64,000 nt of DNA from Promethearchaeota archaeon. Its GTDB lineage: Archaea > Asgardarchaeota > Lokiarchaeia > Sigyniarchaeales > SOKP01. Below the pieces are notes generated by a model, which saw only the letters and a program-made list of their open reading frames with translations, did no database searches and was not told the DNA's origin. Positions 37,463-39,517 of this stretch are shown one piece after another (the stretch's first letter is position 1; each line of letters begins with the position of its first letter). The stretch is from positions 1 to 64,000 of the forward strand of contig JABXKD010000008.1 in assembly GCA_013375475.1 (NCBI GenBank), read 5' to 3'. The position numbers and the translations under genes are program-made.

Positions 37463-38216
37463 ATTTTTAATTACATCTTTAACATCTTGTACTGGATGTA
37501 TAACAGCATTAATATCGCTGGATATCTTTCCACAATTTCTTGAGAGAACGAAAATCGAACACTTTCCATTTATATTTGATAATTTAAACATAAAAGAATG
37601 CGATATAGCGCTAGTAGAAGGGTGTGTGTCCGAAAAGAACCAGATCAAATATCTTCATGAAATACGAAAAAATGCAAAAAAACTATATGCATTCGGTACT
37701 TGCGCAGCATTTGGGGGGATTCTTAGTCTCTCAAATAAGAAAGAAGCGTATCCCATTTCAAAATTTGTAGATGTTGATGGAGTAATACCTGGATGTCCTC
37801 CTCCCGCCATACTTCTAGGTAATTGTTTATTAAAGCTAGTTGAGAACAAAAAACTCAAGTTAAACTTAAAAAATATGTGTTCAACTTGTCCTTTAAGCAA
37901 CCAAGTGCCATTGGGGTTATCGTTAACGATAAAAAAAATTAAACCAAGAAACGATGAAATTCAATTTCCAGAAGAAAATTTATCGTGTTTTTTGAATGAT
38001 GAGATTTTATGTTTAGGTCCCGTTACTCGAGATGGCTGCGATCATCTTTGTATACACTACGGATTACCCTGTGAGGGATGCTTAGGACCGGTTTCAAAAG
38101 ATTTTACATCGAATTTTATCAATTTCTTAAGCCTTTTTAACCTTTCTAAAGATTTAAGAAAATATAAAGGGATATATAATAGGTTCTCAAAATCACTTTT
38201 AGGAGGGAAAATTTGA
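37452..38216 (+). CDS. mvhG: [NiFe]-hydrogenase small subunit, group 3 (MvhG-like)
   Basis: SCTGC, VEG, GTCA..GG, PGCPP and CLGPVT..GC...C......C.GC.GP. GGAGG SD before TTG. Overlaps the upstream gene. Confidence 0.85.
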   Translation: MKLRFLITSLTSCTGCITALISLDIFPQFLERTKIEHFPFIFDNLNIKECDIALVEGCVSEKNQIKYLHEIRKNAKKLYAFGTCAAFGGILSLSNKKEAYPISKFVDVDGVIPGCPPPAILLGNCLLKLVENKKLKLNLKNMCSTCPLSNQVPLGLSLTIKKIKPRNDEIQFPEENLSCFLNDEILCLGPVTRDGCDHLCIHYGLPCEGCLGPVSKDFTSNFINFLSLFNLSKDLRKYKGIYNRFSKSLLGGKI

Positions 38217-39517
38217 TGGATAAAGTTGTAGTACCGTGCACAAGAGTTGAAGGTCATGGGAACTTAAACATTTATTTAAAAAATGATGAAATTTATCAAA
38301 CTGAATTGAACTTTTCAGTATTCAGAGGATTTGAAAATATTTTATTAGGCAAAAAGTTAATAGATATTCCAAATATAGTATCTAGAGTTTGTGGCTTGTG
38401 TTACGTTTCTCAAACAATTGCTAGTTGCAAAGCAATTGAAGCTATATACGGAATAGAACCATCACATGAATTAAGTTTGCTTAGAAGACTTCTATTATCT
38501 GGAGAATTAATAAAGTCGCACATTATGCATTATTTTTTTCATTCCTTGCCAGATCTACTAAAAATATTTAATATTTACGGTAACATTGATGAACGTTATA
38601 ATTTAATTAATTACAATCCCCATTTAACAAGTAATATTTTTAATTTAATAAAAATTAGTTCAGAAATAAATAAATTAATGGGAGGAAGGGTAATACATCC
38701 AATTACACCTTTGCCTGGAGGAATAATATTCAATCCGGGTCAAAAAAGCCTAATCTTTGTAGAGAAATACCTAAAAAAGGGAATTAGTAATATAGAAATT
38801 GTAATTGAGAATTTTATTGATTTATTTTCTGCTTTTGATCCTCCTGCAGAATTTGATCTTTCAAATCCTATCTATTTTGGCTTAAAAAATGATATAGATT
38901 TTGATAGATATGAAGGAAACCTCATACTTAAACAAGATGAAACAACCTACGACGATTTTCAAGCAAAAAATTATTCAAAATATTTTGATAAAGACCCTAA
39001 TCTTTATGGGATTATGTTTAAGACGAAATCAAAAAATAAAATCTTAACAGGGCCATTAGCGCGCTATAATTTAACTCAAAATTATGGGATAGATAAAATA
39101 TCCGAATATTTAAGCAATTTTGGAAAAAAATGGAAAAATAGTTTATTATTTTTAAATTTTTTACAATTAATCGAAATTTACTACGAAATTGAAAAAAGCA
39201 TTGAATTAATAACTACAATTTCATTTAAAAGTAAATATAAACTTAAGCAACTGAATTCAATAAAGGAAACAAATGGAATAGGGGTTATCGAAGCACCAAG
39301 AGGTATTTTGATGCATCATTATCATTTAAATAAAGCTAAAATCGTTGACCAAGTAAAACTATTCATTGCAACAGAAATAAATTTGCCTATTCTTAATAAA
39401 ATGATAACTGAATATGCTAAAAAGTTATATGAAAAAGAAGATATAGATTCTGTTAAAGAAAAAATACAAATAATGATAAGAGCATTTGATCCTTGTATAT
39501 CGTGTGCTTCTCATTAA
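38213..39517 (+). CDS. mvhA: [NiFe]-hydrogenase large subunit, group 3 (MvhA-like), without C-terminal extension
   Basis: TRVEGHG, RGFE, RVCGLC, GPLAR, EAPRG.L.HHY and DPCISCASH-stop. Confidence 0.88.
   Translation: MMDKVVVPCTRVEGHGNLNIYLKNDEIYQTELNFSVFRGFENILLGKKLIDIPNIVSRVCGLCYVSQTIASCKAIEAIYGIEPSHELSLLRRLLLSGELIKSHIMHYFFHSLPDLLKIFNIYGNIDERYNLINYNPHLTSNIFNLIKISSEINKLMGGRVIHPITPLPGGIIFNPGQKSLIFVEKYLKKGISNIEIVIENFIDLFSAFDPPAEFDLSNPIYFGLKNDIDFDRYEGNLILKQDETTYDDFQAKNYSKYFDKDPNLYGIMFKTKSKNKILTGPLARYNLTQNYGIDKISEYLSNFGKKWKNSLLFLNFLQLIEIYYEIEKSIELITTISFKSKYKLKQLNSIKETNGIGVIEAPRGILMHHYHLNKAKIVDQVKLFIATEINLPILNKMITEYAKKLYEKEDIDSVKEKIQIMIRAFDPCISCASH

Follow-up and report, generated by a model that had tools for sequence, protein, structure and literature searches.

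A tail-less Asgard group-3 [NiFe] hydrogenase large subunit with glutamine in its L1 motif, and its operon partner, a winged helix-turn-helix HdrA-MvhD fusion

The window analyzed here is a 64,000-nucleotide stretch of the genome of a Promethearchaeota archaeon (contig JABXKD010000008.1 of assembly GCA_013375475.1, positions 1 to 64,000, forward strand), and the gene under study, at 38213..39517 (+), encodes an MvhA-like large subunit of a [NiFe] hydrogenase (434 aa from TTG 38213; PF00374, E 3e-25, 89.6 bits in the Pfam scan against a cut-off of 25.8). The ATG at 38216, one codon inside the listed TTG, is probably the start, because of the overlap with the mvhG stop and because the homologues are 433 aa long. 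The large-subunit gene is the third of an operon which opens with a fusion of a winged helix-turn-helix (wHTH) domain, HdrA and MvhD (34916..37462, +, 848 aa) and continues with an MvhG/VhuG-like small subunit of 254 aa (37452..38216, +; PF01058, E 2.7e-19; VhuG the best NCBIfam match, 9.5e-32, below cut-off). The small subunit contains, by count from its sequence, 12 Cys, enough for three [4Fe-4S] clusters.

A preliminary description of this DNA had singled out two features of the large subunit, and the translation of 38213-39517 bore out both. The L1 motif RVCGLCYVSQ (residues 58-67, 38384..38413, +) holds the Ni/Fe ligands Cys60 and Cys63 together with Leu62 and Tyr64, and ends in Gln67 (codon 38411-38413), which replaces the His of RxCGxCxxxH. 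The protein stops at the L2 motif DPCISCASH (residues 426-434; with the stop codon, 39488..39517, +) and the C-terminal extension is absent; the stop codon TAA at 39515-39517 is followed by CAC TAA, therefore read-through would gain one residue only. All four metal-binding cysteines (Cys60, 63, 428 and 431) are present. The reported lack of a nearby maturation protease was likewise found: the HycI endopeptidase family PF01750 had no match in the window, and its sole match in the whole-genome scan lay on contig C133, where a HycI-like gene of about 200 aa occupies C133:35709-36311.

The closest solved structures to the large subunit were 7T2R_D (E 3.6e-53) and MvhA 5ODC_F (E 6.2e-45), both of which have the L1 His and, in their deposited chains, 25 residues beyond the aligned C-terminal His. 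Among NCBIfam models, VhuA (NF041785, group 3c) scored 167.7 bits against a cut-off of 800 and ShyA (group 3b) scored higher, 192.9 bits, also sub-cut-off. Every solved structure matched over its full length and every best NCBIfam model belonged to group 3 (3a-3d), and group 1 enzymes matched the N-terminal part only. The proposal that both traits were derived on a group-3 (Mvh-like) scaffold is upheld, and because they were derived on that scaffold, their likeness to HoxC/HupV is one of convergence. In PMC5665086 and PMC7294309, an L1 Gln and a missing extension are given as features of the H2-sensing HoxC/HupV; the latter source also describes the tail as naturally absent in groups 2b, 2d, 4c, 4e and 4g, and tail-less catalytic groups exist.

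Both traits recur well beyond this locus. In a set of 121 close homologues (the query and its 120 best homologues), Gln stood at the end of L1 in 120 proteins, and the C-terminus lay exactly at the His in 120, the remaining one being a truncated sequence; the homologues bearing a source name came from Asgard metagenome-assembled genomes (MAGs) throughout. Among representatives at 50% identity, Gln was confined to the nearest clusters. Gln-type representatives had either no tail (P0122) or tails of 5-11 residues (P0124, P0129, P0132 and P0133), and at the same identity level 18 His-type group-3 representatives lacked a tail and 6 had Tyr in place of the His. Since 120/121 close homologues and 44/44 rows of the Gln clade described below have Gln, Gln67 is, judged from these alignments, neither a sequence error nor a chance event.

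A quick maximum-likelihood tree was computed from 112 rows (LG+G4, midpoint root, with the Shimodaira-Hasegawa-like approximate likelihood ratio test, SH-aLRT, as the only support measure and no curated group references). In this tree all 53 Asgard rows formed one clade (SH-aLRT 100), separate from the short-tail and the long-tail clades, and a 45-row subclade (support 99) had Gln everywhere except in P0123, whose non-Gln state the topology marks as a reversal. The tree needed 2 changes between Gln and non-Gln and 4 between tail and no tail. One basal group (L144-146 and P0126) kept His and tails of 7-8 residues; another (L147/148/151 with P0128) likewise kept His, with tails of 8-10 residues once a Val variant of the C-terminal motif was admitted, except in P0128, which stopped at the motif. 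Judged by this tree and these alignments, the large subunit belongs to a distinct Asgard group-3 clade, and Gln and tail loss are fixed in a whole lineage and not peculiar to the window locus. Two side observations concern relatives: in L147, L148, L151 and P0128 the C-terminal His of DPCxxCxxH is replaced by Val or Leu, and one large-subunit copy (G164:C51:14841-16037) contains 4 in-frame TAA codons, which points to a pseudogene or to stop-codon recoding.

For residues around the active site we counted alignment columns in three sets: 44 rows of the Gln clade, 9 basal rows with His, and 59 representatives from the rest of group 3. The four Cys, Arg363, Asp114 and His368 were found in 44/44 Gln-clade rows, and Glu13 in all 43 filled rows. 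Position 67 was Gln in 44/44 rows of the clade, His in 9/9 basal rows, and His (56) or Tyr (3) in the other 59. Position 9 was Cys in 43/43 filled rows of the Gln clade and Ile, Val, Leu or Met elsewhere in group 3; position 62 was Leu in 41 of the 44, the window included, vs Ile (36) and Val (15) in the other representatives; position 64 was His (23) or Tyr (19, as in the window) vs Pro (25) and Ser (18); and position 110 was Gln (40), His (3, as in the window) or Asn (1) vs Leu (43), Met (9) and Phe (4). By motif register, we take positions 62 and 110 to be those of the Val74/Leu122 bottleneck, and of Ile62/Phe110 in H2 sensors. According to PMC11023054, the gas-channel bottleneck consists of Val/Leu, vs Ile/Phe in H2 sensors, and a blocked channel retards H2 evolution to a greater extent than H2 oxidation. 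The sensor pair Ile62/Phe110 is not matched by Leu62/His110 of the window in this register, and the change at position 110 is to a polar residue (Gln/His), unlike the bulky Phe of the sensors.

The first gene of the operon joins three parts: the wHTH domain (residues 1-95, 34916-35200, +; DUF7347, PF24038, 3e-11), a complete HdrA with its flavin adenine dinucleotide (FAD) domain and Fer4 dicluster domains in the Pfam scan, and the MvhD domain (residues 724-841, +; PF02662, 4.4e-32). The NCBIfam HdrA2 model matched residues 97-842 (E 3e-164, below cut-off), and the wHTH gave a weak match to solved ArsR proteins (1Y0U, E 0.015). A search with the wHTH alone returned 134 proteins; in each of the best 120 of the 134 (query included) PF24038 was joined to an HdrA flavoprotein; 116 also had the MvhD domain, and wHTH identity in the 119 other than the query was 56-90%. 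In its own genome, residues 1-85 were found in this HdrA copy alone among the HdrA paralogues. As a side observation, this genome holds at least 10 HdrA paralogues (contigs C282, C221, C281, C30, C288 and others) and 12 MvhD domains, and several HdrA-like frames contain in-frame TGA codons, possibly for selenocysteine.

For the comparison of gene order we used 45 non-redundant loci, 40 from genome searches and 5 (L006, L007, L008, L011 and L012) from a contig search which had given at least 9 Asgard loci and whose duplicates L005, L009, L010 and L013 were left out. Of the 45, 41 extend 3.4 kb or more upstream of the large subunit, and 39 of these (all but L139 and L150) have a same-strand wHTH-HdrA gene, in the order wHTH-HdrA-MvhD, MvhG, MvhA: 32/34 Gln-type loci, 6/6 basal His-type loci and one locus with an unparsed L1. 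The co-occurrence of the two traits with HTH-linked HdrA, raised in the preliminary description, stands for 32 of the 34 Gln-type loci, and the six basal His-type, short-tail loci are HTH-linked as well. Because of these basal loci, the HTH link is older than Gln and tail loss. Across most loci HdrA was the more conserved partner (63-72% identity vs 48-57% for MvhA). In 7 of the 45 loci (L123, L124, L129, L131 and L133-135) an FrhB/FdhB-like gene of 370 aa lies directly upstream of the HTH-hdrA gene in the same orientation, at a distance of 69-129 nt. A membrane histidine-kinase-like gene follows mvhA on the same strand after 47-146 nt in 5 of the 45 (L006, L011, L130, L135 and L136); its full-length copies (351-353 aa) have a HATPase_c domain and N-terminal hydrophobic helices. 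This gene is absent from the window, and the domain scan found no histidine kinase in the window's operon. Four contigs of the metatranscriptome run X20, 95-99% alike, matched hdrA only (35548-36606) and none matched mvhA; because an RNA library may also contain DNA, these contigs give no firm indication of expression or its level.

The operon is preceded by a divergent intergenic region of 309 nt (34607-34915), in which we found the operator-like palindrome CTGATAAGAAAAATTGTCAA (34701..34720), with one mismatch to TTGAYAA-N6-TTRTCAA. The 7-mer TTGACAA or its complement occurred in 17 of 18 divergent intergenic regions, vs 1.4 expected from shuffles, and forms this 20-bp palindrome. Of 39 upstream regions (12.4 kb), 12 contain the exact palindrome and 23 contain it with at most one mismatch, counts which are not independent, the loci being related. 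The remaining 584 kb of the same loci contained 2 exact sites and 15 within one mismatch, most of which lay in front of the FrhB-like first gene, at distances of 74 and about 241 nt, in 6 of the 7 FrhB loci (not in L135); only 3 sites were away from an operon promoter region. The palindrome occurs in families f1, f6 and f21 and in three of the six basal His-type loci (L144-146), and it was not found in L147-151, five of eight loci outside these families. As for the remaining three, L138 and L139 belong to family f5 and L140 to f1; L139 has no HdrA next to it, and contig ends truncate the flanks of L138 and L140. Genome-wide, 13 sites within one mismatch were found vs 15 in shuffles, with none on the contig of the Vhu-type hydrogenase described below. 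Because this count is no higher than in shuffles, any regulation by the palindrome would be local. No other HTH gene was conserved at the locus in the neighbor clusters of the 45 loci.

A second group-3 large subunit is encoded in the same genome on contig C265:1-7138 (locus L001); it has the L1 His, and the contig end truncates it. The DPCxxC motif is missing from its relatives (435-445 aa), and we take this large subunit and its relatives to be VhuA with a separate VhuU. Beside it lie a 437-aa small subunit, HdrB- and HdrC-like genes and a molybdopterin FdhA-like gene, as identified from their sequences. A genome scan found no [FeFe] hydrogenase and no group-4 large subunit in this genome. 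The preliminary description had asked whether Gln and tail loss are common in ordinary Asgard group-3 enzymes without an HTH partner; this was not found, and the Vhu-type enzyme of the same genome keeps its His.

A survey of 400 genomes from the phylum placed nearly all strong matches of the window protein in its own family, in which, by hand count, about 91 of 134 genomes have it. A hand count within the genus gave 29 of 41 genomes with the window-type gene, 8 with the Vhu type only and 4 with no match, and three single-contig genomes of a sister family have the Vhu type only. The window type was the only hydrogenase found in five relatives, four of them 95-99% complete (G264, G200, G162 and G163) and one 81% complete (G188): PF00374 matched this open reading frame alone, with no match to PF02906 or PF00346. 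Absences in these comparisons are subject to MAG incompleteness.

A HycI-like gene was found in 22/22 genomes scanned (families f1 and f3), whatever hydrogenases they held. The idea that the tail-less state is tied to a missing endopeptidase was rejected on this ground, the 22 including genomes in which the tail-less enzyme is the only hydrogenase. HypD and the HypF zinc finger were present in 14/14 scanned genomes with a Vhu-type enzyme (G000 included) and in 11 more scanned genomes whose sole match in the 400-genome survey was of the Gln type. HypA was found in 16/16 genomes scanned, weakly in G188, and HypA, C, D and F all occur in the genome from which the window comes.

Divergent from the operon, on the minus strand, lie two paralogues, the first of 209 aa (33977..34606; cluster 3 of the neighbor-cluster comparison, 23/45 loci), with no Pfam match and no family, and the second of 243 aa (33221..33952); across loci these proteins have about 215 aa. 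A structural model of cluster 3 (predicted local distance difference test score, pLDDT, 84.2) had no PDB match at E <= 0.001, the best being E 0.011 with a template-modeling (TM) score of 0.35; an Atlas candidate, TraB/GumN, scored 0.81 and is a lead only. Beyond the paralogues lies a methylene-tetrahydromethanopterin (H4MPT) dehydrogenase-like gene with an Mpt_N domain (32169..33182, -; PF09176, E 9.4e-26; cluster 4, 20/45 loci), and in 14 of the 45 loci the divergent set includes a CDC48-like ATPase gene.

Downstream of mvhA, a gene at 39576..40139 (+) is cut to 187 aa; it corresponds to a conserved gene of about 342 aa (cluster 5) which follows mvhA in 16/45 loci and has no Pfam match. Compared with L115, the region to about 40500 has lost 1 bp at one place and 121 bp at another and differs by one more 1-bp indel, which leaves the 187-aa frame. 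Run X2 gave a DNA contig that covers 39726-40524 without differences and may stem from the same sample. For cluster 5, a search of the PDB with Foldseek using an AlphaFold2 model (pLDDT 74.8) gave weak beta-sandwich matches only (TM <= 0.21), and the ESM Atlas returned Asgard hypotheticals only. A degenerate histidine kinase was considered for cluster 5 and rejected, since the HATPase_c domain is absent and the predicted fold is different. Tail to tail with the broken gene lies a Gtr1/RagA-like small GTPase gene (40474-41379, -; PF04670, E 1.9e-17), found at the same position in 4 close relatives, and further downstream a complete glycine cleavage set GcvT, GcvH, GcvPA and GcvPB (42325-46684, +).

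The nearest known systems are the group 3c complexes MvhAGD-HdrABC and VhuAGDU-HdrABC of methanogens (PDB 5ODC and 9SW2; large subunit E 6.2e-45 and 2e-43), with which the operon shares MvhA-like large and MvhG-like small subunits, electron acceptance by MvhD and HdrA (judged from gene content), and a cytosolic location. Unlike in those complexes, MvhD and HdrA are fused here and carry an N-terminal wHTH, HdrBC is not in the operon, L1 has Gln, the tail of about 25 residues is absent, and the large subunit falls in a separate clade (SH-aLRT 100); the VhuA, VhuG and HdrA NCBIfam scores of this operon are all far under the curated cut-offs. HdrA2 of Methanosarcina acetivorans (NF040770) is likewise an HdrA-MvhD fusion and aligns over model positions 1-770/777, but at 548 bits vs a cut-off of 1100; the protein described here has 95 additional N-terminal wHTH residues and a hydrogenase as its neighbor, in place of HdrB2C2. 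The best solved match, the 7T2R large subunit, differs in its L1 His and in its length, the alignment ending at residue 450 of a 475-residue chain; we take it to be NiFe-HydABCSL of Acetomicrobium mobile, an electron-bifurcating [NiFe] hydrogenase, whose partners HydABC are unlike those found here. The H2-sensing group 2 proteins HoxBC of Cupriavidus necator and HupUV of Rhodobacter capsulatus resemble the present lineage in the L1 Gln, the missing extension, the change of both bottleneck positions (by motif register) and the link to gene regulation, here a predicted one. They differ from it in that the present lineage has no group 2 relationship (its best matches are all group 3), in the bottleneck residues themselves (Leu and His/Gln here, Ile and Phe there), in the HoxJ-type kinase, of which the window has none, and in that the predicted DNA-binding domain sits here on the electron-accepting flavoprotein itself.

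The reading which we favor, with confidence about evenly balanced, is that of a working Hdr-linked hydrogenase which also regulates its own operon through the wHTH, much like PutA. PutA is a proline dehydrogenase flavoenzyme with an N-terminal DNA-binding domain, which represses its own divergent operon according to the redox state of its flavin; the likeness is one of mechanism only, fold, chemistry and type of DNA-binding domain being unrelated, and homology is not claimed. Gene order, clade membership and fixed residues are observed here; on this reading, the large subunit would supply the catalytic site to a lineage of cytosolic group-3 [NiFe] hydrogenases specific to Asgard archaea, with the wHTH-HdrA-MvhD fusion as its fixed partner. 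H2 would be split or made at the NiFe site, and electrons would pass through three clusters of the MvhG-like subunit and the MvhD [2Fe-2S] cluster to the HdrA FAD, and onward to ferredoxin and a second acceptor; in some lineages the FrhB-like subunit may supply this acceptor, or else Hdr partners from another locus may do so. A dimer of HdrA would set two wHTH domains on TTGAYAA-N6-TTRTCAA in its own divergent promoter, and the redox state of the complex would set the expression of the operon and of the divergent genes, as in enzyme-repressors of the PutA type. Gln67, the missing tail, Leu62, Gln/His110 and Cys9 would then be a lineage-wide re-tuning of the second sphere and of maturation, and they are no proof of a sensor. 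Five points favor this reading. No catalytic residue is lost, and the predicted electron path is complete and strongly conserved. In one subclade the operon gains an FrhB-like substrate module. No other hydrogenase was found in several near-complete genomes. The putative regulatory parts are older than the marks taken for those of a sensor, and the operator-like site is local.

Several observations weigh against it. The gene is dispensable within the genus. No HdrBC was found in the operon or in the window neighborhood, nor any other high-potential module in the window's operon. HypD and HypF zinc-finger matches were missing in G264, G200, G188, G239 and G245, all with only this hydrogenase, which would be surprising for a functional [NiFe] enzyme if these MAGs were complete. 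Positions 62, 67 and 110, all changed here, are the three that set bacterial H2 sensors apart according to PMC11023054 and PMC5665086, with 62 and 110 placed by motif register. Finally, because a canonical Vhu-type hydrogenase by hdrCB- and fdhA-like genes coexists in the genome, a division of labor between sensor and enzyme would be possible.

The sensor proposed in the preliminary description could take the form of a dedicated H2 sensor-regulator, in which a slow hydrogenase would do nothing but reduce the HdrA flavin under H2 and so switch the wHTH at the operator; its targets would be its own operon and the divergent genes (Mtd-like, two unknown proteins and CDC48-like). Such a complex, with sensor and DNA binder united, would correspond to HoxBC-HoxJ-HoxA but derive from group 3, and we consider it possible though clearly the less probable account. 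It is consistent with Gln67 in 44/44 rows and the absent tail, with the bottleneck residues at 62 (Leu in 41/44) and 110 (Gln 40, His 3, Asn 1) where other group 3 enzymes have Ile/Val and Leu/Met, with the wHTH fusion and the conserved palindrome, with the coexisting Vhu-type enzyme, with the patchy distribution within the genus and with the histidine-kinase-like gene after mvhA in 5/45 loci. What stood of that proposal is that the traits are real, derived in group 3 and convergent. Several points speak against its conclusion: the traits are lineage-wide, the HTH link (6/6) and the palindrome (3/6) of the basal His-type loci predate Gln and tail loss, a tail is also lacking in catalytic groups and in the 18 His-type group-3 representatives noted above, and this is the sole hydrogenase found in four near-complete relatives. 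In addition, no operator sites beyond chance lie elsewhere in the genome and none on the Vhu contig, a full six-cluster HdrA, plus an FrhB-like subunit in some loci, would be costly for a pure sensor, and position 110 is polar and not a bulky Phe. H2-sensing regulatory hydrogenases (RH) are marked by low turnover, a stable Ni-C state and O2 insensitivity. For RH, about 2 umol H2 per mg is reported (PMC11023054), and PMC5665086 states of its glutamine that it "seems not to be involved in H2 sensing." In its fullest form, a self-contained H2-gated transcription factor, electrons would run from the hydrogenase over MvhD to the HdrA flavin, and the wHTH pair would bind or release the palindrome and switch the divergent set, including the methylene-H4MPT dehydrogenase-like gene; we put this forward only tentatively.

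Two further accounts are less probable. The complex could be an ordinary Hdr-linked hydrogenase whose wHTH is structural or protein-binding, the palindrome being bound by another regulator. The complete catalytic residues and electron path would fit this, as would the weak match of the wHTH to solved ArsR proteins (E 0.015), with DNA binding by the fusion only predicted; we nevertheless consider it improbable, given that the wHTH is kept at 56-90% identity across the lineage, that the palindrome accompanies the operon in f1, f6 and f21 and tracks the first gene when that gene changes, and that no other HTH gene is conserved at the locus. Alternatively, the protein could lack a NiFe(CN)2CO site, at least in some lineages, and be a hydrogenase-derived redox module with another role. 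The HypD and HypF matches missing in the five genomes named above and present in 14/14 Vhu-type genomes point that way, as does HypC, missing in 3/5 of those genomes. Against it, the four metal-binding Cys and the catalytic Glu and Arg are invariant, HypA was found throughout, and HypC is kept in G264 and G245, with HypA, C, D and F in the window's own genome; moreover, because HypD and HypF lie on one contig, a single assembly gap can remove both. The missing HypD and HypF may reflect MAG gaps, which may explain part of the pattern, or maturation without HypCDEF, and we regard the loss of the NiFe site as very improbable.

Present-day models of how Asgard archaea live in syntrophy and how eukaryotes arose give H2 transfer a central place, and papers on Asgard metabolism usually lump the cytosolic hydrogenases as "group 3c Mvh-Hdr." In PMC11291895, 10.1101/726976 and 10.1101/2025.07.22.663070 the Asgard enzymes are treated as of the Mvh-Hdr type, and PMC11216029 places a group 3c enzyme among the most abundant complexes of a cultured Lokiarchaeon. 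The genome comparison suggests that the family of this cultured organism has the Vhu type only, and its 3c enzyme may lie outside the present clade. Our literature search, which covered main texts and not supplements, found no description of Gln-type, tail-less Asgard hydrogenases or of the wHTH-HdrA fusion. The lineage described here differs from the lumped type: it forms its own clade, is marked by Cys9, Leu62, His or Tyr64, Gln67 and Gln110, is tail-less, and has a predicted DNA-binding domain on its flavoprotein partner with a matching operator-like site. If it is only an enzyme, it would be a natural experiment on the roles of the L1 His and of the C-terminal tail in group 3. If the redox state of the hydrogenase sets transcription directly, this would be a new and simple way to read H2, and if the H2-gated factor is true, it would be without precedent as an archaeal H2 sensor, as one derived from group 3 and as a single complex of sensor and DNA binder.

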